This document shows positions 2,735 to 50,642 of a DNA stretch of 64,000 nucleotides, in pieces. Numbering within the stretch: position 1 is the first letter of the stretch; the number at the start of each line of letters is the position of its first letter. The DNA comes from Patescibacteria group bacterium. Its GTDB lineage: Bacteria > Patescibacteriota > Minisyncoccia > Phycocordibacterales > JBBTRF01. The notes beneath the pieces are model-generated. The model was not told where the DNA came from, did not search any database, and worked only from the letters and a program-made list of their open reading frames with translations. Where the stretch lies: assembly GCA_038065315.1 (NCBI GenBank), contig JBBTRF010000001.1, positions 300,776 through 364,775 on the forward strand. Direction: 5' to 3'. A program made the position numbers and the translations under genes.

Positions 2735-4084
2735 TCAAATGGAACGCAGCGACTCAACAAGGGCAATGATTGCGCGGTCGATGTCACGCTTGGTCGTCCA
2801 GCGGCCAAAGGAGAAGCGGAGGGCGTGCGGGGTGCGAGGCACGGAAGCGGCCGACAGGATGCCGGCGGCAATGGCGGCGGCTTGCGCGCGGCGGAGCGCG
2901 CGGATCACGTAGGATTCGTCCTCGTCGCGAAGGCAAGCGCTCTTGGTGGAGCACGCGACGCCGCGCGCATCCAATTTCAACAGTAAAAATTCGTGATCAA
3001 TTGGCGGCGCACCAACATCGGTCGGTTGAAACGAAACACTCACAATGTGCGGAGACTGGTGCTGGGAATCAATATCAGATGAGCCGTTCAAAAACAGTTG
3101 AACATGCGGAGTTTTTTTGGCGAGCTTTTCCTGCGCGTGCAGGATGAAATAATTTCGCAACTCCGTGAGTCGCGCCACCTCGCGCTCTCGCAAGCCTTCG
3201 GCAAGCTCGAGCGCCTTCGCCATTCCCACTGCTCCAGGCACATTCTCTGTCCCCGATCGCACACCGCGCTCTTGTCCGCCGCCGTACATGATCGGCATGA
3301 GTTCGATGCCACGCCGCACCCACAGCACCCCAACGCTTCGCGGGCCACACACCTTGTGACTATCGAGAGTAATCAAATCTGCACCGAGTTGCGTGGTCGA
3401 GAGCTTTGCGTAGAGCGGCGACTGACTCGCATCACAATGGAACAGCGGAAACAAGACCTGAGAGAGAGCGTTAGTATCTCTCGCGATCATTCCAGCAAGC
3501 ACATTTTCTTTTCGAGCCTTGCGCACCGCTTTCGCCACTTCGTCGATCGGTTGAACGGTGCCGATCTCGTTGTTTACCGACATCACCGAGACCAAAAATG
3601 TATTGGGGCGAAGTTTTTTGCGCAGCTCAGCAACATCAACGCTGCCGGTTGCATCAATTGAAAGATGTTCAACTGTCACGCCAACCTCGCTAAGGTGTCG
3701 CATCGATTCAAGCACAGAAGTGTGCTCGATTTCTGAGACGAGGCAGTGCAGATCGCTCGGCTTCAAGCCGTACCCACCGAGGGTCTTTGGCATGACGAGT
3801 TTTTTGAATAGACCAAAGATGGCAAGATTGTTCGCTTCGGTGCCAGTGGCCACAAACAAGATTTCGTCGGCGTGAGCATTCAGCGTGCGCGCCACCCTAG
3901 CCCGTGCTTCGGAGAGCGCACGTCGAGCGTGCACGCCATCCGCATGAATCGCCGATGGGTTGGCAAAATGCCGTTGCACGGTCTGCGCAATCTCTCGAGA
4001 CACACGAATATCCGGCGGCGTCAGTGCAGCGTAATCCAAATATATTCGTGATTTTTGGGCCAATCTATTGAGGAAATCCAACAT
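2735..4084 (-). CDS. cysteine desulfurase (class V aminotransferase, IscS/NifS-like)
   Basis: Carries the PLP-lysine region LDSHKVCGPRSVGVLWVRRG, GTENVPGAVGMAKALELA, and a C-terminal active-site Cys region. The start is taken at MLDFLN (4084), which has a GATACCAT -10-like box 8 nt upstream. Confidence 0.85.
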   Translation of the reverse strand: MLDFLNRLAQKSRIYLDYAALTPPDIRVSREIAQTVQRHFANPSAIHADGVHARRALSEARARVARTLNAHADEILFVATGTEANNLAIFGLFKKLVMPKTLGGYGLKPSDLHCLVSEIEHTSVLESMRHLSEVGVTVEHLSIDATGSVDVAELRKKLRPNTFLVSVMSVNNEIGTVQPIDEVAKAVRKARKENVLAGMIARDTNALSQVLFPLFHCDASQSPLYAKLSTTQLGADLITLDSHKVCGPRSVGVLWVRRGIELMPIMYGGGQERGVRSGTENVPGAVGMAKALELAEGLREREVARLTELRNYFILHAQEKLAKKTPHVQLFLNGSSDIDSQHQSPHIVSVSFQPTDVGAPPIDHEFLLLKLDARGVACSTKSACLRDEDESYVIRALRRAQAAAIAAGILSAASVPRTPHALRFSFGRWTTKRDIDRAIIALVESLRSI

Positions 4085-4148
4085 ACCAAGATGGTATCCC
4101 ACAACAGCGCTTTTTGCAAAAAGTCAACAAAAGAGGTATAGTATCGAG

Positions 4149-4637
4149 ATGACTTTTGATGTTAGTTCAATTCCTTTGAACCTGCTTTTGTACGCAGTTT
4201 CTGGCATTGTCCTGATACTCATCGTGCTCATTGTCCATCTGGAAGTCCGCGTCCACCGGTTGCTCGTCGGCAAGAATGCCAAGAGTCTGGAGGACACGGT
4301 ACTCCATATCAAAAAAGGGCTTGCAGAAAGCGAAGATTTTCAGCGAGAGATGGAGAAATACCTCACACTCGTAGAACGACGCTTGTCGAGAAGCACCCGC
4401 GCCGTTGAGACCGTGCGTTTCAACGCCTTCAAAGGCATCGGCGCGGGTGGCAACATGAGCTTCGCCACAGCCTACGTCAACGAAAAAGGCGACGGAGTTG
4501 TGATCTCCACCCTCAATGCCCGCGAGCGACTCGGCATCTTCGCGAAGCCCCTCAAGAATTTTATCTCAGAATTCGAACTCTCTCCGGAAGAAGAGGAGGC
4601 GATCTCAAAAGCGAAGCACGCGCTGACGATCCAATAA
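4149..4637 (+). CDS. DUF4446-like membrane protein
   Basis: N-terminal TM helix, then a conserved core (FNAFKGIGAGGNMSFATAYVNEKGDGVVISTLNARE). GGTATAGTAT lies just upstream of the ATG at 4149. The family assignment is from memory. Confidence 0.45.
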   Translation: MTFDVSSIPLNLLLYAVSGIVLILIVLIVHLEVRVHRLLVGKNAKSLEDTVLHIKKGLAESEDFQREMEKYLTLVERRLSRSTRAVETVRFNAFKGIGAGGNMSFATAYVNEKGDGVVISTLNARERLGIFAKPLKNFISEFELSPEEEEAISKAKHALTIQ

Positions 4638-12183: not shown

Positions 12184-12564
12184 TTACTGGAGAGTGTCTA
12201 AGGTTGGTGCTGTCAGACCCTGTTCTTCTAAGTTAAACGTCTTTTTTAACAAAGTCACGAGTCCGTACACAGAGACCATCACGAAGATTCCGACAATACC
12301 GTACAAGATAGTGCTCTTCGCCTTTTCTTTCTTCTCCTCGTCGTCACCCATGATCACATACTGGAGTACCCCATAGAGGAAATACACAACGGCACAAGCA
12401 ATAAGAAAGGGTACTGCATAGTCTAGGAATGAACGGAATAATTGCGCAATGCCACCAAGACCTTGGGTTGTATTTTCAAAGTCGGTACTCACTGCCGCAA
12501 ACACCGAAATCGGAGCCATGAGAGCAGCCGCTGCTGCTGACATTCCGTAAAAAAGCTTTTTCAT
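12184..12564 (-). CDS. VirB2/TrbC-like pilin-like protein, paralog P2 (signal peptide)
   Basis: Starts at the internal ATG (MKKLFYGMSAAAAALMAPISVFAA), which reads as a signal peptide. Core: YFLYGVLQYVIMGDDEEKKEKAKSTILYGIVGIFVMVSVYGLVTLL. Confidence 0.6.
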   Translation of the reverse strand: MKKLFYGMSAAAAALMAPISVFAAVSTDFENTTQGLGGIAQLFRSFLDYAVPFLIACAVVYFLYGVLQYVIMGDDEEKKEKAKSTILYGIVGIFVMVSVYGLVTLLKKTFNLEEQGLTAPTLDTLQ

Positions 12565-12701
12565 ACGTAAAATTGAATAAACTGCTGATAATAAAGTAAT
12601 ACACTTCTTAAAGGCAAAGATATTACCTCCCGACATTATACCAGCCCCTAGAATGGCGACAAACCAAGGGTGTGGACAGGCAGACCGGAGCGCCGCGGCG
12701 G

Positions 12702-12965
12702 CTAGAACCCAACAAAAAAGGTATTGATCACCAAGCGCACCAATCCCCACACGGAAAACATCACGGCCAAGCCGATGATGCCGTAGATCATCATATCCCT
12801 GCCCTCTTTCACTTTGTCCTCACTGGCACCGGCCAAAATATACTTCTGTACACCATAGAGAAAGGCGACAATCGCGGTAGCAAACAATAGGGGTGCCAAA
12901 GTACCGCCAATAATGTCGTACAAGACATCGATGAAGTCTTTGAAATCGGTGACGCCGTTGAGCAT
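12702..12965 (-). CDS. VirB2/TrbC-like pilin-like protein, short paralog P3 (no signal peptide)
   Basis: 87 aa. Core: AFLYGVQKYILAGASEDKVKEGRDMMIYGIIGLAVMFSVWGLVRLV. Lies 5 nt after the stop of P4. Confidence 0.5.
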   Translation of the reverse strand: MLNGVTDFKDFIDVLYDIIGGTLAPLLFATAIVAFLYGVQKYILAGASEDKVKEGRDMMIYGIIGLAVMFSVWGLVRLVINTFFVGF

Positions 12966-12970
12966 GAATG

Positions 12971-13369
12971 TTAGATATTACTGACGCTCTTCACTGTATT
13001 CTCAATAATCCTCGCGATGATCTCCGCACTAAGCAGCACAGCAGTACCCACCGCCGCCCACTTGAGGGTGCCGTGCGCCTTGCCCACCTTTTCCTCATCA
13101 CCCTGCGCGGTCACATACAAAAAGCCGCCGTAGATGAAGTAGAGCACTGCGATGATGGCGCCGAGGCGACTCACCAGCTTTAGGATATCGGCAAGGAGAT
13201 CTTCGATAGAGTTTGCCTTGAGCGGATTGGAGAAACTGAGAGCTTCGTTTGTGACCGACGCATGGACCAATGGTACAGCAACAGTGAGAAGTACTCCGGC
13301 CACCAAACAATGCGCCATGAGTTTCTTGAAGATAGGTTTGAACTGCCTCGTGTGTGAGAAGTATTTCAT
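12971..13369 (-). CDS. VirB2/TrbC-like pilin-like protein, paralog P4 (signal peptide)
   Basis: 132 aa with an N-terminal signal/TM (LVAGVLLTVAVPLVHA). Core: YFIYGGFLYVTAQGDEEKVGKAHGTLKWAAVGTAVLLSAEII. Confidence 0.6.
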   Translation of the reverse strand: MKYFSHTRQFKPIFKKLMAHCLVAGVLLTVAVPLVHASVTNEALSFSNPLKANSIEDLLADILKLVSRLGAIIAVLYFIYGGFLYVTAQGDEEKVGKAHGTLKWAAVGTAVLLSAEIIARIIENTVKSVSNI

Positions 13370-13373
13370 GTCT

Positions 13374-13859
13374 CTATTTTATCTCAATTGTGTTCCCTTT
13401 CAAAATCGGGTAGCTCACCTGATTCAATAAGGCTTGCAATAAAGTCGTAACAATCAGCCACGCCGCCAAGATAATACAGAAGCCGATAGCGACGTTGGTA
13501 AAGATTGTATGCGCCTGCCCGACCTTCCCCTCATCGCCAGCGGAAGTCATATAGAGGTAGCCCGCATAGGAGAGGAGCAGGATAACGGCGGGGACGGAGA
13601 GGTAGAAGGCAAAATTGACCACATTCTTGGCGAGCAACACCACATCAGCGAAGGTACATTCGTGCGCCGCGGCGGTATTGTCGGGGTTATCAAAGTCACC
13701 ACAGACGATGAGGTTTGGCTTCTGAAGCCCGAAGAAACCGTTACTAGCTGCTGCGACAGGTGCCGGAATAAGGATGGCAGAGAACGACAGAAAGAGGAGC
13801 GCGGACAGCAAGCTCGAGAGGACGACTGAAGCGGCGATTTTTCTAAAAAAAGGGTGCAT
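13374..13859 (-). CDS. VirB2/TrbC-like pilin-like protein, paralog P5 (signal peptide, longest)
   Basis: 161 aa. Signal peptide AASVVLSSLLSALLFLSFSA, with two Cys in the ectodomain. Core: YAGYLYMTSAGDEGKVGQAHTIFTNVAIGFCIILAAWLIV. Confidence 0.55.
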   Translation of the reverse strand: MHPFFRKIAASVVLSSLLSALLFLSFSAILIPAPVAAASNGFFGLQKPNLIVCGDFDNPDNTAAAHECTFADVVLLAKNVVNFAFYLSVPAVILLLSYAGYLYMTSAGDEGKVGQAHTIFTNVAIGFCIILAAWLIVTTLLQALLNQVSYPILKGNTIEIK

Positions 13860-19394: not shown

Positions 19395-22300
19395 TTACAA
19401 ACACACCGCGCTCGCCAATGTGTCACCATCTCGCAGGCGCATAATACGTACGCCTTGGGTCTGTCGGCCGAGGACCGGAATCTCCTTGATATCGCAGCGG
19501 ATGACCTGGCTCTTTTTGGAGATGGCCACGAGCTCGTTGGCACCATCACCGACCTCGCCTTCTTTCACCTCCTTGGCAGCCGCAGCCACATCCACCACGC
19601 TCGAAGTGATGACCTTGCCGGTCTTGTCGGTGATTTTCGCGGTCAAAATACCGGAGCCGCCGCGCTTCTGCACCTTGTATTCGGAGAGCTCAGTCTGCTT
19701 GCCGTAGCCGTTGCTCATGATCACGAGCAGTGCTGGCTTTTTCATATCCTTCTTCACCACATCGGCACCAATGACGGTGTCGCCCTTTTCGAGACGCATC
19801 GCAATGACACCCATGGCTGCGCGGCCCATTTCGCGGATATCGGTTTCCTTGAATCGGATCGACTGACCTTCGCTGGTCGCAAGGATCACCTCATCGCCCT
19901 TCTCGACAAATCGTACCGACACGAGACTATCGCCAGACTCCAGACCGATAGCGATGAGGCCACTTCGTCGAACATCGTGGAAGGTTTCGGCATTCACCTT
20001 CTTGCCCACGCCATTTTTGGTGATCATGAAGAGACTGAGACCGCTTTTCTTCACCTCCTTCGGCATCGGGAGAATCGAGGTGACGCGTTCGTCGTCGGCC
20101 AGTGCCAAAAAGTTTACGATTGACTTGCCCTTGGTCGCGCGCTTGCCTTCAGGGATCTCGTACATCTTGATCTGGTACGCCTTGCCCTTGTTCGTGAAGA
20201 ACAGCATGTCCGCATGCGTGTTCGCATTCAAAATATGGGTGATGAAATCCTCTTCTTTCGTATCGAGATCCACCACACCTACACCGCCGCGCTTCTGTCG
20301 GCGATACTCGTCTGGCAAGGTACGCTTGATGTAGCCACCCGCAGTGAACACGAGCACAGAGTCCACGTCTGGGATGGTGTCCTCAGGCTTAAATTCCTTC
20401 ACACCTCCACGGATGACCTTGGTGCGTCGCTCGTCGCCATATTTTGCACGCACTTCGAGCAGTTCTTTCTTGATCACCGCCAAAATCTTCTTCGCGCTCG
20501 AGAGCAAATCCTTGAGCTCGCGAATGAGCGCCTGCACAGCGTTGAGTTCGTCTTCAATCTTCTGTCGTTCGAGGCCCGCGAGACGCGACAGCTTCATTTC
20601 CAAAATAGCAGTCGCCTGGCGGTCGGAGAATTTGAAGGTCTTCATCAAATTGAGATGCGCCTCCGGGGTGTCCTTCGACTTTTTGATCAATTTAATGATC
20701 TCGTCGATATGGTCGAGCGCTTTCTTGAGGCCGAGCAAAATATGCTCACGGTCTTCAGCCTTGCGGAGGTCAAATTCGGTGCGACGACGCACCACCACCT
20801 GTCGATGCTTAATGAATTCCTCGAGCACGCTCTTGAGCGAGAGTGTCTGCGGCACGCCGTCCACGAGGGCAACGGTGTTGAAGTGGAACGTATCTTCGAG
20901 CTGTGTGTGTTTATACAAAAAGTTCAGCACGGCCTGTGGGAAAGCACCCTGCTTGAGGTCGATCACCACGCGAATGTCTTTCGTAGACTCGTCTCGGAGG
21001 CCCTTGATACCTTCGACCTTCTTCTCGCGAACGAGGTCGGCGATGGTCAAAATAAGGTCGGCTTTGTTCACTCGATATGGGATCGAGGTGATGATAATCT
21101 GGAACGAGCCGTTCTTAGTCTCCACGATTTCCGCTTCGCCGCGCACCACCACGCCGCCGCGGCCAGTGGTATACGCATGCTTCATTTCGGCAGAAGCGTA
21201 CAGCATCGCGCCAGTCGGGAAATCCGGACCCTTCACAAATTGCAAAAGGTCTTCCGCAGAAGCATCGGAGTTGTCGATGAGATGCGTGGTCGCATCCACC
21301 ACTTCGCCGAGATTGTGCGGCGGAATGTTGGTCGCCATACCGACGGCGATACCAAGGGTGCCGTTCAAAAGGAGATTCGGGACAGCAGCCGGCAGCACGC
21401 CCGGCTCTTTTCGAGTGTTTTCGTAGTTTGGTCGGAAGTCGACAGTGTCTTTCTCAATATCCTGGAGCATCACGGTCGAGATGCGCGCCATCTTCGCCTC
21501 AGTGTATCGTTCTGCCGCGGCGCCGTCACCGTCGATTGAGTTGTGCACGAATACGCCCGCCGCCAGCGCAAAATTGTGGCTTACCGGCACAGTGAGGTCG
21601 TATACATCTTCGCGTTCGCCTGAGAATTCAACGCGAGAAACTTTGTGGTTTCCCACGAGCTCAACCGTAAGTCGGTCGAGATTAGAACCGTAATATTTAC
21701 TGAAACCAACCTCCCATGAAGTGGCCGACCTGTACGGGTACACCTTCGGACGAAATTCTTCGTAAGTCTCCTTGGAAAGCGGTACACCCTTCTCGATCAA
21801 TTTCTTGCAAACCGTGTCGAATTTCTTCTTCCCGGTCTTGTTTGTGGTGTGATTTTTGTTTCCCTTGATGATCCGCGCGTGCATCTCTTGGCGATACGCC
21901 TCATCCTGCCACAAACGCTTCAAGGTCTTGGTTGCGCGAGCCGAAAGTTCCAGACGCTTTTCTGGATGAGCTGCAATGTACTCAAGATTCACTCGACTGA
22001 GCGTCTCGATCATCTGCGCACGGTATTCAGGATTCTGCCAATTCTGCTTATTCCTTTCCGACATCGCCTGGCTATACTGCTCTTTTACGCCAGCCTTTGC
22101 ACGAAACGCCTTTCTACCTTCCGCAAGCTTCTTTACGTACTCGGGATCATTTTTATGTCGGCCAGCAGTCAGTTCGGAATGAAGTCTCCAATGATCGATC
22201 CATTGCATTCGCTGGATATTTTCTGGACTATTGTTGCCTTTATTAAAATCGACATGATGTCGGACCTTGCCGGCTGACTTGGCATATTTACCAATAGAAA

Positions 22301-23141
22301 TGTTGAGGGCATCGGCCAAATGATGCGCATACTCCCAAGTATTATCGAGAGGTTGGTAGATCATCTCGTATCCAACCATATCCGAAAGTGCACTTTCTCC
22401 TTTTTCAGAAAGACGGCTGTACAAAGGCATCAATGATTCACCTGGCTTTAGATATTGCGCCTCTTTATAATCCTGATTCTTCAGAAGGAATTTGTGGTTT
22501 AGCGTACATTTGATCTCTTTTCCATTGTCGAGCACCACCTTCATGATCTCAGCGTCCTTAATCGTCAGTCGCGGCTTTATCAATTGAGCAATTTCCACCT
22601 TTCCCTCTTTTGAAACAGTGAAGGTGTAATTTTTCTTGCCCTTCTTGTCCTCATTGATGAGTTCACCAAAAGAAAGATTGCGCCCATCAGCGAGTCGAAC
22701 TTCCGTATCTTTTGTAAAACAACCGAAGTTACCCTGGCCGATGATCAGCGGGTATCGAATCGAAAAATCCTGCGCCATCTTCACCATAGATTCATACACC
22801 GCGACGTTGCCGTGCGGGTGATATTTTCCGAGCACGTCTCCCACCACCGCCGCAGACTTTCGCGTCTTCGCGCTCGCCACCAGGCCCATCTCGTGCATTG
22901 CATACAAGATACGTCGGTGCACCGGCTTCAAACCGTCGCGCACGTCAGGCAGGGCTCGCGCAGTGATCACGGACATCGCGTAGTCCAAATACGAGTCGCG
23001 CATTTCGGTAGTGATGCTGCGACTCACCACGTTCTCGCGTGCAGGCAAAGCCGACGCCTCTGATGCGCCACTTTTTCCGCCCTTATCGCTTTTGCCTTCG
23101 CTGCCGCCCTTTGGCTTCTTGTCTGAATCTTTAGATGACAT
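19395..23141 (-). CDS. gyrA: DNA gyrase subunit A, intein-containing precursor (1248 aa)
   Basis: N-extein ends ...IIGQGNFG and the C-extein resumes SIDGDGAAAERYTEAKM, with the active-site Tyr region intact. The rest is a normal GyrA, including the C-terminal beta-pinwheel repeats. Confidence 0.95.
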   Translation of the reverse strand: MSSKDSDKKPKGGSEGKSDKGGKSGASEASALPARENVVSRSITTEMRDSYLDYAMSVITARALPDVRDGLKPVHRRILYAMHEMGLVASAKTRKSAAVVGDVLGKYHPHGNVAVYESMVKMAQDFSIRYPLIIGQGNFGCFTKDTEVRLADGRNLSFGELINEDKKGKKNYTFTVSKEGKVEIAQLIKPRLTIKDAEIMKVVLDNGKEIKCTLNHKFLLKNQDYKEAQYLKPGESLMPLYSRLSEKGESALSDMVGYEMIYQPLDNTWEYAHHLADALNISIGKYAKSAGKVRHHVDFNKGNNSPENIQRMQWIDHWRLHSELTAGRHKNDPEYVKKLAEGRKAFRAKAGVKEQYSQAMSERNKQNWQNPEYRAQMIETLSRVNLEYIAAHPEKRLELSARATKTLKRLWQDEAYRQEMHARIIKGNKNHTTNKTGKKKFDTVCKKLIEKGVPLSKETYEEFRPKVYPYRSATSWEVGFSKYYGSNLDRLTVELVGNHKVSRVEFSGEREDVYDLTVPVSHNFALAAGVFVHNSIDGDGAAAERYTEAKMARISTVMLQDIEKDTVDFRPNYENTRKEPGVLPAAVPNLLLNGTLGIAVGMATNIPPHNLGEVVDATTHLIDNSDASAEDLLQFVKGPDFPTGAMLYASAEMKHAYTTGRGGVVVRGEAEIVETKNGSFQIIITSIPYRVNKADLILTIADLVREKKVEGIKGLRDESTKDIRVVIDLKQGAFPQAVLNFLYKHTQLEDTFHFNTVALVDGVPQTLSLKSVLEEFIKHRQVVVRRRTEFDLRKAEDREHILLGLKKALDHIDEIIKLIKKSKDTPEAHLNLMKTFKFSDRQATAILEMKLSRLAGLERQKIEDELNAVQALIRELKDLLSSAKKILAVIKKELLEVRAKYGDERRTKVIRGGVKEFKPEDTIPDVDSVLVFTAGGYIKRTLPDEYRRQKRGGVGVVDLDTKEEDFITHILNANTHADMLFFTNKGKAYQIKMYEIPEGKRATKGKSIVNFLALADDERVTSILPMPKEVKKSGLSLFMITKNGVGKKVNAETFHDVRRSGLIAIGLESGDSLVSVRFVEKGDEVILATSEGQSIRFKETDIREMGRAAMGVIAMRLEKGDTVIGADVVKKDMKKPALLVIMSNGYGKQTELSEYKVQKRGGSGILTAKITDKTGKVITSSVVDVAAAAKEVKEGEVGDGANELVAISKKSQVIRCDIKEIPVLGRQTQGVRIMRLRDGDTLASAVCL
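21540..22721 (-). mobile_element. GyrA intein (394 aa) with HNH-type endonuclease domain
   Basis: Begins with Cys (CFTKDTEV...) and ends ...VFVHN, followed by a Ser. The internal HNH motif is HHVDFNKGNNSPENIQRMQWIDHWRLH. The insertion lies between GNFG and SIDGDG, about 10 aa before the catalytic Tyr. Confidence 0.85.
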
Positions 23142-25823: not shown

Positions 25824-26603
25824 CTAGGATTCAAGTTTCTTGCGAGCATCGCCAGCAATCGTCCCACCCTTCGTAGCCGCAACTTTATTTGGAACGAACC
25901 CTTGAGCATCAGTAGTTCGAGCAATTTCTGTGGTCGCCGCCTCACCGAGCATTGAAAAGATGAGTTCTAGGTCATTCATGTGATCACGAAGATTCTCTCG
26001 CTCGAGACCTTTTAGGGTTTTATACTCATTCGGCGTCATGCCAAAAGCCGCTTTTGATATCTCGGCGGTGAGAATAGCGTATTCATTTTGCTCTTTGACG
26101 CCTCGATTCTGCCACTCGTTGGTCAATTCTTCACGAATGGTAATACCCCTCATACGCTTTTCGATCCAGGCATCATCGTAGCCCTTAGCTTTATAAAGAG
26201 CGCGAGTGCGTTTTGTGGCAAGTTCAGGGTCTTCGATCTCCTTTATGCGTTCATAGCCTACAGTAGCCAACCAACGCTTAAATGGTTCGGCTTTGGGTGA
26301 AGGGACTGACTGGATAATGCGGAACAAGCCTTCGGCGTTGGCGCAGTCAGTTTCTCGCATCTTGCCATCAGGGGCCGGCAATTTCAACTGGTGACAAAAT
26401 GTCACCAGTTGACTCCCTTCGTCTTTCAGCCTTTGCGCGAGTTTATTCCAATATTTTCTCGCAGTGAGATCATCGACTTGATCGGTAAGCGCCTGCACTA
26501 CATCCACCACCGAAAACCACCACTCATTGTTGCGGATGATTTTTCGAATCTTCGTGCCCTTAAAGACGGCGATTTTACTGATTGGATTTAGATTTTCTGA
26601 CAT
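25824..26603 (-). CDS. Bro-N domain protein (phage antirepressor / DinD-like)
   Basis: Starts at MSENLNPISKIAVFKG. The Bro-N core is KIRKIIRNNEWWFSVVDVVQAL. The C-terminal half resembles the DinD/RhuM family. TGCTATACT lies ~36 nt upstream. Confidence 0.5.
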   Translation of the reverse strand: MSENLNPISKIAVFKGTKIRKIIRNNEWWFSVVDVVQALTDQVDDLTARKYWNKLAQRLKDEGSQLVTFCHQLKLPAPDGKMRETDCANAEGLFRIIQSVPSPKAEPFKRWLATVGYERIKEIEDPELATKRTRALYKAKGYDDAWIEKRMRGITIREELTNEWQNRGVKEQNEYAILTAEISKAAFGMTPNEYKTLKGLERENLRDHMNDLELIFSMLGEAATTEIARTTDAQGFVPNKVAATKGGTIAGDARKKLES

Positions 26604-26749
26604 TCTGTTATTTCTTATATCTTGCAGTAAAGCTAGTATAGCAAAATAGTGCTCAAGAAACATATAAAAAATGTTAAAGAAAAGCCTAAGAAAAGGTAAA
26701 GAAATTATGAAGAGAAGTCCTCATCACACATCTCTGCTATACTATCGTC

Positions 26750-39090: not shown

Positions 39091-39218
39091 GAAGATGTTC
39101 TAAAGATAGTCTAAATTGCGCTAAATATAGCAAAATAGTAGCACGCGAACTAGAAATCTGCCACGGAAACAAGGTGGAGAAAACTAGACACATGAACCAT
39201 TGATAGTATAATTTATAC

Positions 39219-39989
39219 ATGATTTCTAAGTGGTACGACAAAAAAGCTGCAGTGCTGCAATCTCGAAAGAAGGGGTTATCTTTTCGTGAATTAGAAGAGA
39301 AATTTGGCGTACCCCGCTCCACACTGAGCGGTTGGTGCAAAGAAGTTTCATTAAGTCCCTCAAATGAGGAGCGCCTTCAGAAAAAGTGGCGAAAAGGCTT
39401 GAGAAAAGGGCGCATAGGAGCAGTGCGTTGGCATAATACCCAGAAACAAATCCGAATAGATGCGGCGAAAAAATCAGCCGTCGATGTCCTGGAAAGGATC
39501 GACCTTACTGACAAGAACGTACTTGAGACACTACTCGCCTTCCTCTATTTAGGAGAGGGCTTCAAAACTACGAGCACGGGTATCGGGAATAGTAACCCAC
39601 TCATATTACAATTTTTTGTATCAATGCTGCGAAATGTCTATGAAATACCTGCGAAGAAACTGCGATGTGAACTCCACCTGCGAGCAGACCAAGACGGAGA
39701 AAAAATGAAGAAATACTGGTCGAAGTCACTTGGGATACCGATCAAAAACTTCACCTCCCCACATTTTGACAAACGCACCATTGGCTTCCCCACTTATCCG
39801 CAGTATAAAGGGGTATGTTTGGTGCGGTGTGGAAATATTGCCATACAACGAAAATTAGTATATCTTAGCGAGATAGCGTGCAAGCAAATCGTTGGGCGGT
39901 TAGCTCACTTGGTAGAGCGCGTCGTTGACGTCGACGAGGTAACAGGTTCGAGCCCTGTACCGCCCACACATGACCGCAGATACGCATAA
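39219..39989 (+). CDS. hypothetical HTH-domain protein with LAGLIDADG-like motif; ORF reads through tRNA-Val
   Basis: N-terminal HTH-like segment (SFRELEEKFGVPRSTLSGW). Internal LAFLYLGEGFKTT resembles a LAGLIDADG block. The last ~30 codons (GRLAHLVERVVDVDEVTGSSPVP) are the tRNA-Val gene translated in frame, so the true 3' end is uncertain. Confidence 0.4.
   Translation: MISKWYDKKAAVLQSRKKGLSFRELEEKFGVPRSTLSGWCKEVSLSPSNEERLQKKWRKGLRKGRIGAVRWHNTQKQIRIDAAKKSAVDVLERIDLTDKNVLETLLAFLYLGEGFKTTSTGIGNSNPLILQFFVSMLRNVYEIPAKKLRCELHLRADQDGEKMKKYWSKSLGIPIKNFTSPHFDKRTIGFPTYPQYKGVCLVRCGNIAIQRKLVYLSEIACKQIVGRLAHLVERVVDVDEVTGSSPVPPTHDRRYA
39894..39966 (+). tRNA. tRNA-Val (GAC)
   Basis: Sequence GGGCGGTTAGCTCACTTGGTAGAGCGCGTCGTTGACGTCGACG...GGTTCGAGCCCTGTACCGCCCA. 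The anticodon loop TTGACGT gives GAC. Confidence 0.85.
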
Positions 39990-41619
39990 GCATGCCGCAG
40001 GATTGATCCCGTATTTTTTGTCGACCTCGAAAAATGAATACAGTGTCTTCGTCCAGCGTCGCTCGACAGACGCCAAGCGCAATCCAAATGTTTTTGGCTT
40101 GTTTGGCGGTGGTATCGAAGCTGGTGAAACACCCGAACAGGGCCTACATCGCGAGATTCTTGAGGAGCTGAGCATTGACCTCGACAAGCCCGAGTACCGC
40201 GCGGCAGTGGCGCCGATCGGCACCTTTGATTACGCCGACTCAATCGGCAAAGTCCGCGCACACGAATACGCCCTGCCAGTGACGCCGGATTTTGCAAAGC
40301 AAGTGAAGATCGGCGAAGGTCAATATGGCATTTTTATGAGCGAAACGGAGATCCGCGAGAGTGGCGAATTTCTCGAAGGTCATCGGCAGATGATCCTCGA
40401 TTTTCTTGGGTCGATCAAAGCACCACGCATCATTCTCGGCATCGAGACGAGCTGCGACGAGACCGCACTCAGCCTCGTCCGCACACAAGGTCGCAACGTG
40501 CAGGTGCTCGGACATGAATTGATCTCGCAGATCGATGTACATCGACCATACGGCGGAGTTTTTCCGGTCCTCGCCAAGCGTGAACACGGACGCAACCTTG
40601 TGCCACTCCTAGAAAAGATCCTGTTGAATGATCCGGCACTGCCGCAGGTGGCGTGGACCGGTCCGAGCGAAGCGATCCTCGCAGAGATTCGCGTCATTCT
40701 CGCCCGTGAAGCCGAATTACTCGCGCTTTTTGAGGCATTTATTGAACGCCGATGTGCCTCTGGTGCCGCGACATCCGACAGTGCCGCATCCAACACCACC
40801 CGACCTGCCATCGACGCCATCGCTGTCACTGAAGGCCCAGGCCTCGAGCCAGCACTCTGGGTTGGCGTCGGCTTTGCAAAAGCGCTTGCACTACTTTGGA
40901 ATGTGCCGATCATCCCGATCAATCATATGGAAGGTCATGTTGTGGCCTCCCTTCTCACTACCCAGTCGCACGGTGGTCTTGCGGAGCTCGCCAAGCCGCC
41001 GCTGCCAGCGCTGGCGCTCTTGATCAGCGGCGGCCACACCGAGCTCGTACTGATCCAGGCGCTCAGCTCATATGAAATCATCGGCAAGACGCGCGACGAC
41101 GCAGTGGGCGAAGCCTTCGACAAAGTCGCGCGCATCCTCGGTCTGCCTTATCCGGGCGGCCCGCAGATCAGCACTCTTGCTAAGACGGTCACCTCGAGCC
41201 AATACACCCTGCCGCGCCCAATGATCCATTCCAAGGACCTTGATTTCTCTTTTTCCGGCCTGAAGACCGCCGCGCTCTATCTCACCAAAGAAATTGAAAA
41301 AACTCACCCCCTCACCAACACCGACAAAGCCGAAATCGCGTACGAAACCGAGCAAGCCATCGCCGAAGTGTTGACCAAAAAGACCTCGCGAGCTATTGAG
41401 CAACACAATATCCAGTCTCTCATCATCGGCGGCGGCGTCATTGCGAACACGGTGCTCCGTGAAGCCTTTGGAACGCTCGCCAAACACTATTCCATCCCCC
41501 TTTTCCTCCCAACCAACGCACTTGCAACCGACAACGCAGTCATGATCGCCGTGGCAGCCACACTGAAAGGCACGAGCGGCCAGCGAGCGCCTGTCGTGAA
41601 GGGCAATTTGTCGCTCTAG
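39970..41619 (+). CDS. tsaD: Nudix hydrolase domain fused to tRNA N6-adenosine threonylcarbamoyltransferase TsaD
   Basis: Residues ~40-65 carry a Nudix box (GGGIEAGETPEQGLHREILEELSI). From ~150 onward it is TsaD (RIILGIETSCDETALSLV, NHMEGHV, GGGVIANTVLRE). The ORF is a single continuous 549 aa. Confidence 0.8.
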   Translation: MTADTHKHAAGLIPYFLSTSKNEYSVFVQRRSTDAKRNPNVFGLFGGGIEAGETPEQGLHREILEELSIDLDKPEYRAAVAPIGTFDYADSIGKVRAHEYALPVTPDFAKQVKIGEGQYGIFMSETEIRESGEFLEGHRQMILDFLGSIKAPRIILGIETSCDETALSLVRTQGRNVQVLGHELISQIDVHRPYGGVFPVLAKREHGRNLVPLLEKILLNDPALPQVAWTGPSEAILAEIRVILAREAELLALFEAFIERRCASGAATSDSAASNTTRPAIDAIAVTEGPGLEPALWVGVGFAKALALLWNVPIIPINHMEGHVVASLLTTQSHGGLAELAKPPLPALALLISGGHTELVLIQALSSYEIIGKTRDDAVGEAFDKVARILGLPYPGGPQISTLAKTVTSSQYTLPRPMIHSKDLDFSFSGLKTAALYLTKEIEKTHPLTNTDKAEIAYETEQAIAEVLTKKTSRAIEQHNIQSLIIGGGVIANTVLREAFGTLAKHYSIPLFLPTNALATDNAVMIAVAATLKGTSGQRAPVVKGNLSL

Positions 41620-41644: not shown

Positions 41645-43876
41645 ATGAATGATAAGTTCCTGAAGCCGTATTCTCCACAGGATACCGAGGCGAATATCTA
41701 TACACGCTGGCAAGAGAGCGGTTTTTTTAATCCCGACACGCTTGCCGCGTTGGGCGCCAAAATGCCAACGGGAGGATCTGTGCCACGCTTCACCAAGCCC
41801 TTCACTATCGTGATGCCGCCGCCAAACGCCAACGGCAATCTCCACGTCGGCCACGCTCTCGCCATCGCCCTTGAGGACATCATGATCCGCTACAAACGCA
41901 TGCAGGGCTTCAAGACCCTCTGGGTGCCAGGCGCCGACCATGCCGGCTTCGAGACGCAGATCGTGTACGAGAAGAAGCTCGAGAAAGAAGGACGCTCTCG
42001 CTTCAAAATGGATCCTCAGGACCTCTACAAAGAGATTCTCGCCTTCACCCTTGAAAACAAAGGCAACATGGAAGCTCAAGTGCGCGCGCTCGGAGCTTCT
42101 TGCGATTGGTCTCGCGAGAAATTCACCCTCGATCCTGACGTCGTGGCCGAAACGCATCGCACGTTCCAGAAAATGTATGACGACGGCCTCGTGTACCGCG
42201 GCTCGCGCATTGTGAATTGGTGCTCCAAGCACGCCACCTCCCTTTCCGACGTGGAGACCGAGAGCAAGGAAAAAACCGACCCATTTTACTATTTCAAATA
42301 CGGCCCATTCACTATCGGCACCGCTCGACCAGAGACAAAATTCGGCGACAAATACGTGGTGATGCACCCAGAGGACAAGCGCTACGCCGAATACAAGCAA
42401 GGGCAGAAGATCGACCTCGAATGGATCAACGGCCCGATCACTGCGACCGTCATCAAGGACGAAGCGATCGACATGGAGTTCGGTACCGGCGTGATGACCA
42501 TCACCCCATGGCATGATGCGGTGGACTTTGGCATTGCCGAGCGACACAAGCTCGACCGCGAACAGGTTATCGACATGCGAGGCAAGCTCCTCCCTATCGC
42601 TGGCGAATTTTCGGGCCTGAAGATCGCCGAAGCTCGACCAAAAATCGTCGAGAAGCTCAGGGCCAAAGGCTTGCTCGTGAAAGTGGACGAAAAATACGTA
42701 CACAATGTCCCTGTCTGCTACAAATGCGAGACCGCGATTGAGCCGCAGATCCTCCCACAATGGTTCGTGAAGATGCAGCCGCTCGCGGAGAAGGCGATCA
42801 AAGCTGTGGAAGCTGGTGAAGTAGTCTTCCAGCCAGACAACTACCGCAAAATCTTCCTCTACTGGATGAACAACACCCTCGATTGGAACATTTCCCGACA
42901 GATTGTCTGGGGCATTCCAATTCCTGCAAAGATCTGCGACGCTTGTGGTTTTGCTGCACCTGACCTCGAGCACAAGCTCACTACTTGCCCTAGCTGCAAG
43001 ACAGCAACCCCACTCCGCATCGACACCGACACCTTCGACACCTGGTTCTCCTCGGGCCAGTGGCCACTGCTTTCGCTCGGCTATTCAAAGGGCGCTGATT
43101 GGAAGTCTTTCTACCCCACCGACGTCATGGAGACCGGTTCGGACCTGATCTTCAAATGGATCCCACGCATGGTGATCTTCGGCCTCTACCTTACCGGCAA
43201 GGCACCATTCCACACCGTATACCTCCACGGCCTCGTAAATGACGCTCAAGGCAAGAAGATGAGCAAGAGTAAAGGCAATGTCACCAATCCAACCGACCTC
43301 ATCGCCAAGTACGGCACCGACGCGCTGCGCATCGGTCTGATTGTCGGAAATACGCCTGGCACCAACCTCGCTCTCTCCGAAGACAAGATCCGCGGGTACA
43401 AAAACTTTGCCAACAAGCTCTGGAATATTAGCCGCTTCGTACTCGAGAGCACTTCCGGTCAGGGCGCGACGACCGCCTTTGCCTACGACCCCGTCTTTTC
43501 TGCCTGGTCTGAAGCTGAAAAAGCGCTCACGGCGGAAAGAGACGCCCTTGTCGCCGAGATCACGAAAGAAATGGACGACAACAAATTCTACCTCGTCGCC
43601 GAAAAGCTGTACCACTACATCTGGCACCGCTTCGCCGATGTCATCCTCGAAGACAGCAAGACGATTCTCGGATCAGCCGCTCCTAGTGCCGCTCCGACCA
43701 CCGCAACACCTGCAGACAAAACTTCTCGTGCGCAGTTTTTGCTTCATACCCATCGCGCTATCCTGAAGACGATGCACCCCTTCATCCCATTCGTGACCGA
43801 AGAGATCTGGTCCTTGCTGCCAAAGGCCACAGGCGAGCAGGAACTCTTGATGGTGGAAAAGTGGCCGACGGCGTAG
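41645..43876 (+). CDS. valS: valine--tRNA ligase (short form, 743 aa)
   Basis: HIGH motif PPNANGNLHVGHA. KMSKS motif KMSKSKGN. CP1 editing domain present. TGCTATGAT lies 8 nt upstream. Confidence 0.9.
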   Translation: MNDKFLKPYSPQDTEANIYTRWQESGFFNPDTLAALGAKMPTGGSVPRFTKPFTIVMPPPNANGNLHVGHALAIALEDIMIRYKRMQGFKTLWVPGADHAGFETQIVYEKKLEKEGRSRFKMDPQDLYKEILAFTLENKGNMEAQVRALGASCDWSREKFTLDPDVVAETHRTFQKMYDDGLVYRGSRIVNWCSKHATSLSDVETESKEKTDPFYYFKYGPFTIGTARPETKFGDKYVVMHPEDKRYAEYKQGQKIDLEWINGPITATVIKDEAIDMEFGTGVMTITPWHDAVDFGIAERHKLDREQVIDMRGKLLPIAGEFSGLKIAEARPKIVEKLRAKGLLVKVDEKYVHNVPVCYKCETAIEPQILPQWFVKMQPLAEKAIKAVEAGEVVFQPDNYRKIFLYWMNNTLDWNISRQIVWGIPIPAKICDACGFAAPDLEHKLTTCPSCKTATPLRIDTDTFDTWFSSGQWPLLSLGYSKGADWKSFYPTDVMETGSDLIFKWIPRMVIFGLYLTGKAPFHTVYLHGLVNDAQGKKMSKSKGNVTNPTDLIAKYGTDALRIGLIVGNTPGTNLALSEDKIRGYKNFANKLWNISRFVLESTSGQGATTAFAYDPVFSAWSEAEKALTAERDALVAEITKEMDDNKFYLVAEKLYHYIWHRFADVILEDSKTILGSAAPSAAPTTATPADKTSRAQFLLHTHRAILKTMHPFIPFVTEEIWSLLPKATGEQELLMVEKWPTA

Positions 43877-45130: not shown

Positions 45131-45132
45131 AC

Positions 45133-45178
45133 AACAGAAAAAAGCGCGACCATCGGGTCGCGCTTTTTTCTGTTGCTT
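45133..45178 (+). terminator. rho-independent terminator
   Basis: CAGAAAAAAGCGCGACC-catc-GGGTCGCGCTTTTTTCTG. Confidence 0.75.
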
Positions 45179-50114: not shown

Positions 50115-50642
50115 TCAAACCAAACCATCAACCTCAAACCCAATCTTCTTTTTCGGCCCCTCCGGCGGATTGATCAACCGCTTCACTACAGAATACACAC
50201 TCGAAAGCTGATCACCATGCTCTTTCTGTTTTCTCTCAATTTCTTCGATCTTGTGGGCCAAATCAGTGTGCGTGGCCAGTACTTCCCGCATTTTGATAAA
50301 AGCTCGGACAATGAAGATACTCATCTGTACCGCTCGCTGGCTTTTCAGCACCGCAGAGAGCATGGCCACGCCGTGTTCGGTGAAGACGTAGGGTAGATAA
50401 CGGCTTCCTCCACGACCAATCTTTGAGGTTTCAATTTGAAACCTCAAAGATTGGCTCTCGTCCTTTGTTAATTGAAACATAAAATCCTCTGGAAACCTTT
50501 GAATATTTCGGCGCACTGCCAAGTTCAAACTTTTAGTGGGTATGCCGTATATTTCAGCCAAATCAAAGTCCACCATCACCCGCTGGCCGCGAATGATGTA
50601 AATTTTGTGTTCGACGACATTTTGTATCGCATCTTTTTCCAC
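50115..50642 (-). CDS. ORF6N (KilA-N-like) domain protein
   Basis: The classic ORF6N motif is IRGQRVMVDFDLAEIYGIPTKSLNLAVRRNIQRFPEDFMFQL...LRFQIETSKIGRGGSRYLPYVFTEHGVAML. It is often prophage-associated. Confidence 0.75.
   Translation of the reverse strand: MEKDAIQNVVEHKIYIIRGQRVMVDFDLAEIYGIPTKSLNLAVRRNIQRFPEDFMFQLTKDESQSLRFQIETSKIGRGGSRYLPYVFTEHGVAMLSAVLKSQRAVQMSIFIVRAFIKMREVLATHTDLAHKIEEIERKQKEHGDQLSSVYSVVKRLINPPEGPKKKIGFEVDGLV
50416..50454. repeat. 39-bp perfect palindrome inside the ORF6N CDS
   Basis: CCAATCTTTGAGGTTTCAA-T-TTGAAACCTCAAAGATTGG. It encodes SQSLRFQIETSKIG, the conserved ORF6N motif. Confidence 0.8.

Follow-up and report, generated by a model that had tools for sequence, protein, structure and literature searches.

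The window analysed here is a 64,000-nucleotide (nt) stretch of a Patescibacteria group bacterium genome (assembly GCA_038065315.1, contig JBBTRF010000001.1, positions 300,776 to 364,775 of the forward strand), and the gene under study joins a Nudix hydrolase domain to the tRNA-modification protein TsaD. Features are listed in Table 1, with positions counted from the first letter of the window. The gene was read from the Nudix part into the TsaD part with no stop and no change of frame. Its product is identical to GenBank MEK7645037.1, the public label of which names TsaD alone and leaves out the Nudix domain. An earlier note on this DNA, made from the sequence without database searches, had described a single Nudix–TsaD open reading frame (ORF) and proposed a domain search; this was run, and both domains of the 549 amino acid (aa) protein were found above the curated Pfam thresholds, in agreement with that description.

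Table 1. Features of the window, with coordinates in nt and residues numbered in the fusion protein unless another gene is named
Feature	Position	Strand	Basis and remarks
Fusion gene	39970..41619	+	One uninterrupted ORF, 549 aa
Nudix hydrolase domain, residues 1-150	39970..40419	+	Pfam NUDIX; AlphaFold2 (AF2)/Foldseek fold; MutT-like in general
Nudix box GGIEAGETPEQGLHREILEELSI, residues 47-69	40108..40176	+	Regular-expression match to GX5EX7REUXEEXGU
Fusion junction A151-P152-R153	40420..40428	+	Comparison with split relatives; replaces their stop/start overlap
Complete TsaD, residues 153-549 and stop codon	40426..41619	+	TIGR03723, PDB matches, motifs; tRNA A37 threonylcarbamoyltransferase subunit
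~55-aa insertion in TsaD, residues ~220-276	40627..40797	+	Split hidden Markov model (HMM) and PDB alignments
tRNA-Val (anticodon GAC)	39894..39967	+	ARAGORN; ends 2 nt before fusion ATG
valS (valyl-tRNA synthetase)	41645..43876	+	25 nt downstream of fusion, no terminator between
Intrinsic-terminator-like hairpin	45132..45175	+	20-bp stem and T run; strong; after hsp20
256-aa ORF between DAO gene and tRNA-Val	39219..39989	+	N-terminal helix-turn-helix (weak Pfam matches), LAGLIDADG-like motif LLAFLYLGEGF
Sigma-70-like promoter	39185..39212		11/12 match; just upstream of 256-aa ORF
GyrA gene, intein-interrupted	19395..23141	-	1248 aa; Pfam Intein_splicing, residues 150-534
Three consecutive small type IV secretion system pilin-like genes	12184..13859	-	PF18895
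Phage-type regulator genes (BRO-N; ORF6N/Rha-like)	25824..26663 and 50115..50642	-	Scattered among housekeeping genes

The TsaD part scored 356.8 bits against TIGR03723, the NCBIfam TsaD equivalog (cutoff 296.1), and 261.4 bits against Pfam TsaD (PF00814; cutoff 24.8). Solved TsaDs were matched at E=1e-65 to 1e-71 in a PDB search. All TsaD motifs were found by regular expression: GIETSCDET (residue 157), GPG, HMEGH (319), SGGHT (353), DDAVGEAFDK, SFSGLKT, GGGVIAN (487) and TDNA (520). Roles were assigned to the metal site (His-x3-His with the S/TDN Asp) and to the ASKHA motifs after E. coli TsaD. A complete TsaD had been claimed from IETSCDETA and HMEGHV, and the equivalog score and full motif set bear this out. 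In the structural model the insertion listed in Table 1 added two helices behind helix alpha-1; it was common to other Patescibacteria TsaDs, which are 385-430 aa long against ~335-345 aa for solved TsaDs. The dimer interface of solved TsaB-TsaD complexes is formed by this region of TsaD, and the insertion may alter partner binding in Patescibacteria. No tsaB, tsaE, tsaC or sua5 was detected with Pfam among the 50 genes scanned in the window, which covers ~8% of a 0.78-Mb contig and says little on this point.

The Nudix part scored 38.9 bits against Pfam NUDIX (PF00293) within the full protein and 42.1 bits as an isolated domain (gathering cutoff 21.1). The box GGIEAGETPEQGLHREILEELSI retained all acidic and Arg positions and carried Ser at the final Gly position, as the earlier note had read it. 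This position was occupied by N, E, D, G, S and others across 166 subfamily members, standalone proteins included, so that the Ser is unremarkable. In a 10-sequence subfamily alignment (the window protein and nine standalone relatives) E53, R61, E62, E65, E66 and the MutT-like E116-G117 motif were invariant. The box residues were also kept in the fused relatives P0002-P0009, the sequences of which were read directly.

The isolated domain was modelled with AF2 to a predicted local distance difference test (pLDDT) of 90.7 and a predicted template modelling (pTM) score of 0.84, and showed the alpha/beta/alpha sandwich Nudix fold. Foldseek returned 500 PDB Nudix matches at E<=0.001 with template modelling (TM) scores of 0.6-0.75, all of them generic; E. 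coli RppH structures were among them at TM about 0.6-0.69. The subfamily profile matched E. coli MutT best in the PDB (E=1.3e-12 over ~98 residues), followed by other MutTs, CoA pyrophosphatase and NudB-, NudG- and NudI-type enzymes. These matches were MutT-like in a general way, and no substrate class was assigned from either search. Assignment of a specific substrate from NCBIfam equivalogs was likewise abandoned: models for MutT, NudG, NudI, NudC, RppH and ADP-ribose pyrophosphatase all scored far below their cutoffs, with MutT at 30.7-33.6 bits against 97.9 (TIGR00586) and 30.9-34.6 against 148 (NF008044), and RppH at 18-21 bits against 116-118 (NF001936, NF001938). The equivalent of MutT K39 was Gly in the window protein and in most of the subfamily, and the C-terminal region held no conserved Asn equivalent to N119 (region PPANEPV); the roles of both residues are those of E. 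coli MutT. By sequence and fold the Nudix domain falls among generic MutT-like NTP pyrophosphatases, with its catalytic residues intact.

Relatives were collected from a search of 5.8 billion proteins clustered at 90% identity. Nine clusters of fused proteins were obtained (P0001-P0009; 72-100% identity, 538-559 aa, full-length cover, both Pfam domains), drawn from NCBI, ENA, JGI and Logan assemblies. The exact window protein was present on 4 contigs from three sources, the longest contig being 781 kb. The fusion is real: because it recurs in frame in P0001-P0009, in independent assemblies, it is not an error of the window assembly. Two checks proposed earlier, for a frameshift between the domains and for conservation in relatives, were answered by the same clusters; no frameshift was present, and the fusion was kept in all nine.

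The fused gene derives from an overlapping gene pair. In L005 nudix and tsaD are separate genes whose stop and start codons overlap as ATGA, the usual layout of translationally coupled genes; the Nudix is 56% and the TsaD ~64% identical to the corresponding part of the window protein. In the closer relative L001 (GCA_964602975.1; Nudix 69% and TsaD 79% identical) the genes are again separate; they lie in different frames, with a 20-nt overlap. The L001 junction differs from that of the window by 13 nt, and a stop lies in the TsaD frame 16 codons upstream of the ATG. In L001 the ancestral Met still stands where TsaD begins, and the tail of its Nudix resembles the long linker of fused P0009. Three junction types were present among close relatives. 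In a neighbour-joining tree of the TsaD part, split L001 fell in a near-polytomy with the fused sequences and L005 fell outside. The junction therefore changes readily, since a split pair nests among fused sequences, and the near-polytomy fits either a single fusion with later fission in L001 or more than one fusion event. On comparison of these sequences, the gene boundary is seen to shift by small indels, with fused and split states coexisting in close relatives.

In the window R153 occupies the position of the initiator Met of separate TsaDs (MIILGIETS), and the junction peptide S-I-x-x-P-R-[IV]-ILGIETS was common to the window protein and P0002-P0008. P0009 was also fused, with a linker ~20 aa longer and Gln at the TsaD start position. 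The initiator Met is lost in every fused gene, being replaced by Arg (Gln in P0009); TsaD is therefore made only as the fusion. The full-length AF2 model had a pLDDT of 89.0 and a pTM of 0.80 for the whole chain, and the C-terminal helix of the Nudix domain (136-150) was followed after only two residues by strand 1 of TsaD (153-160).

Both domains are under purifying selection. The ratio of nonsynonymous to synonymous substitution rates (dN/dS, Nei-Gojobori) among fused relatives was 0.06-0.09 in the Nudix domain and 0.08-0.10 in TsaD; in many pairs dS was >1 or undefined, at or near saturation, and the ratios are approximate, with dN far below dS in both parts. Since dN is far below dS and no catalytic residue of the Nudix box varies in the subfamily alignment, both domains are maintained, and the TsaD ratio backs a probably retained TsaD function.

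The distribution of the pairing is narrow. A profile HMM of the Nudix domain was searched against 1.84 billion representatives and returned 96 proteins at E<=1e-30; almost all of these were standalone and 135-150 aa long. Among the best 150 matches to the profile one was a TsaD fusion (P0005, a 50%-identity representative); the few longer subfamily members carried a HAD hydrolase, ASCH, glyoxalase, DUF1801 or second Nudix domain as their fusion partner. In 185,579 species-representative genomes the profile located 63 loci with relatives, one of them close, and tsaD was adjacent in this one alone (the fused locus of the ELA631 metagenome-assembled genome, from which P0005 also comes). In JGI metagenomes the scan located one close contig, which carries P0004. 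Neither the genome nor the metagenome scan yielded a new junction state. No Nudix gene lay near tsaD for TsaDs at 55-60% identity (L009, L010), and no tsaD lay next to the more distant Nudix relatives L006 (Kaiserbacteria) and L007. The nudix-tsaD pairing is a rare feature of one Patescibacteria clade.

No paper linking Nudix enzymes to TsaD, to N6-threonylcarbamoyladenosine (t6A) or to threonylcarbamoyl-AMP (TC-AMP) was found in the literature searched. The suspicion that the fusion is not standard was well founded, as it was undescribed in t6A reviews or in any paper found; Nudix–TsaD is a domain architecture of a known enzyme that was previously undescribed in the literature searched.

Compared with bacterial TsaD (YgjD/Gcp; PDB 8IEY, 4YDU, 6N9A), the fusion protein was alike in its full-length match and in all ASKHA and metal-site motifs, and differed in its 150-aa N-terminal Nudix domain, in the lack of a start codon of its own for TsaD and in the ~55-aa insertion. 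The archaeal Kae1–Bud32 protein (MJ1130; PDB 3EN9, 2VWB) likewise joins a Kae1/TsaD-family transferase to an enzyme encoded next to it in relatives; the two are fused in 25 of 53 archaeal genomes and adjacent in 13 more (PMC4615747). Bud32, however, is C-terminal, widespread and a proven t6A subunit, whereas the Nudix domain is N-terminal, confined to one rare clade and has no known t6A role. In TobZ and HypF a YrdC-like domain is fused to a Kae1-like domain (PMC9654439). Here too a Kae1/TsaD-like domain is joined to a nucleotide-handling domain, but the partner there synthesises the adenylate used by the Kae1-like domain, while a Nudix domain would destroy nucleotides, with no channelling logic evident.

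Among Nudix enzymes, E. coli MutT (8-oxo-dGTP diphosphatase; PDB 1MUT) shared with the window domain the box and a downstream E-G-Q-x-G; the window domain differed from it in scoring 30-35 bits against equivalog cutoffs of 98-148, in having Gly at the K39 position and in an unconserved N119 region. The same Nudix module (E<=1e-25 against the subfamily profile) was found in Nudix–HAD P0262, ASCH–Nudix P0183, Nudix–glyoxalase P0198, Nudix–DUF1801 P0218 and the tandem Nudix proteins P0250 and P0256, where small genomes have likewise attached it to an adjacent enzyme; none of these partners, unlike TsaD, has a link to tRNA modification. Fusion to HAD and ASCH (P0262, P0183) hints that the module may take part in catabolism of nucleotides or modified nucleosides.

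The order DAO-type oxidoreductase (minus strand), tRNA-Val, nudix, tsaD, valS, prsW, hsp20 was conserved. The gap between tRNA-Val and the ATG was 2 nt in the window, L001 and L002 and 27 nt in L005; a distance of 4 nt had been given before for the window, and the ARAGORN coordinates correct this to 2 nt. No Shine-Dalgarno sequence was visible at the ATG after tRNA-Val (window 39967..39972; L001 3890..3893; L002 5998..6001). After 3' processing of tRNA-Val the mRNA would be nearly leaderless. The hairpin after hsp20 is the probable end of the transcription unit. The 256-aa ORF upstream contained no stop before tRNA-Val and reads through the tRNA. A 60%-identical ORF was present at the same spot in L005 (4222..4932) and was absent from L001, L002 and L075, a patchy spread that is typical of a mobile homing-endonuclease-like gene. 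L002 carried a different LAGLIDADG_3-type gene (3412..4386) next to tRNA-Ser, not homologous to the window ORF by tblastn; tRNA genes seem to attract LAGLIDADG-type genes in this clade. The remaining features of the window are given in Table 1.

The reading that we favour, with a probability of about 0.62, is a recent, clade-restricted merger of overlapping, coupled genes in which each domain keeps its own activity. In the ancestral state nudix and tsaD would have been adjacent and translationally coupled in a tRNA-Val–nudix–tsaD–valS operon. Small indels at the boundary would then have brought both into one frame, with loss of the TsaD start codon and a link of 2-3 residues. The TsaD half would transfer threonylcarbamoyl from TC-AMP to A37 of ANN-decoding tRNAs, and the Nudix half would serve as a house-cleaning nucleotide pyrophosphatase. 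The fusion would then be a side effect of genes being compacted in a very small genome; it would fix co-expression at 1:1 and bring no new catalytic coupling. That the two activities are independent, and that the Nudix half has this class of substrate, we infer.

Several observations weigh against such a merger of independent activities. The helix running nearly straight into strand 1 suggests that the domains keep a fixed geometry and are not strung loosely like beads, the inter-domain geometry being judged from pLDDT and pTM alone, and the model is predicted with confidence through the junction (pLDDT 85-92; pTM 0.80). Because the TsaD part of a fused gene lacks a start codon, every TsaD in the cell must carry a Nudix domain, which is evidently tolerated or useful. 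Adjacency of nudix and tsaD also predates the fusion and is tight, as the coupling in L005 indicates, and a functional partnership would give the same arrangement.

An alternative is a Nudix domain integrated in t6A synthesis, where it could remove stray or mis-made TC-AMP, act on the ATP and ADP by which TsaD turnover is gated (replacing or assisting TsaE) or clear N6-modified adenine nucleotides that tRNA turnover sets free. We consider this unlikely, though it is the foremost of the alternatives. The conserved adjacency, passing from translational coupling to fusion, speaks for integration, as do the strictly conserved catalytic residues with low dN/dS after fusion, the short, confidently modelled junction and the precedents of Kae1–Bud32, TobZ and HypF (PMC4615747, PMC9654439). 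Against it, only one narrow clade shows the pairing and TsaDs at 55-60% identity lack it, the Nudix kin are standalone or fused to unrelated domains away from tsaD, and no paper was found that ties Nudix enzymes to t6A. Obligatory physical coupling is argued against because fused and split states interchange in close relatives. TC-AMP, moreover, is an acyl-adenylate with a single phosphate, whereas the substrates that define Nudix enzymes are nucleoside diphosphates linked to X. The earlier suggestion that the domain hydrolyses TC-AMP or ADP-ribose-like by-products thus found no support, the subfamily being generic and unlinked to tsaD elsewhere. The proposal of a dedicated t6A accessory in this clade, fixed on the N-domain of TsaD and hydrolysing surplus or off-pathway TC-AMP, the ATP/ADP by which TsaD is reset (a share of the role of TsaE) or N6-threonylcarbamoyl-adenine nucleotides left by tRNA turnover, appears more doubtful still.

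An RppH- or NudC-like 5'-end pyrophosphohydrolase or decapping enzyme, which TsaD would bring to a tRNA or to the co-transcribed tRNA-mRNA precursor, would sit well with the RppH structures among the Foldseek matches and with the tRNA-Val/valS operon, in which the gene starts 2 nt after the tRNA. It is nevertheless very improbable, given RppH equivalog scores far under their cutoffs, best PDB matches of the profile to MutT-type NTPases rather than RppH, and a subfamily that is mostly standalone and lacks RNA-related context. Mature tRNAs, for their part, have a 5' monophosphate once RNase P has cut them, which also counts against it. There is similarly little likelihood that the Nudix domain is enzymatically dead and has a structural or regulatory role on TsaD, such as promoting dimerisation or mimicking a partner. 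The short, confidently modelled junction and the loss of the canonical last Gly of the box would agree with this, but the invariant residues of the 10-sequence alignment, E53 to E116-G117, and the box kept in P0002-P0009 do not, and the last Gly varies throughout the subfamily, among its standalone proteins too. That two genes were falsely joined by a frameshift in sequencing or assembly was rejected. The different frames of the two genes in close relative L001 could have pointed to such an error; nine independent in-frame clusters effectively refute it, the window protein recurring unchanged on its 4 contigs, eight further clusters from independent samples being in frame, and Arg or Gln, not Met, standing at the TsaD start position of the fused genes.

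Read as a merger of coupled genes, the locus provides a clean case, with fused and split forms side by side, of coupled gene pairs becoming multidomain proteins through indels of a few nt, and TsaD is seen to tolerate a 150-aa N-terminal domain. Were the dedicated Nudix accessory to prove correct, a universal pathway of tRNA modification would gain a new component; a Nudix domain acting on a nucleotide of the t6A pathway would add a new accessory activity to it. TsaD is universal and usually essential, and its bacterial mechanism depends on partner proteins. Because of this reliance any natural TsaD fusion may offer a clue to the partners or the regulation of TsaD; the clue given by the Nudix fusion is a weak one.

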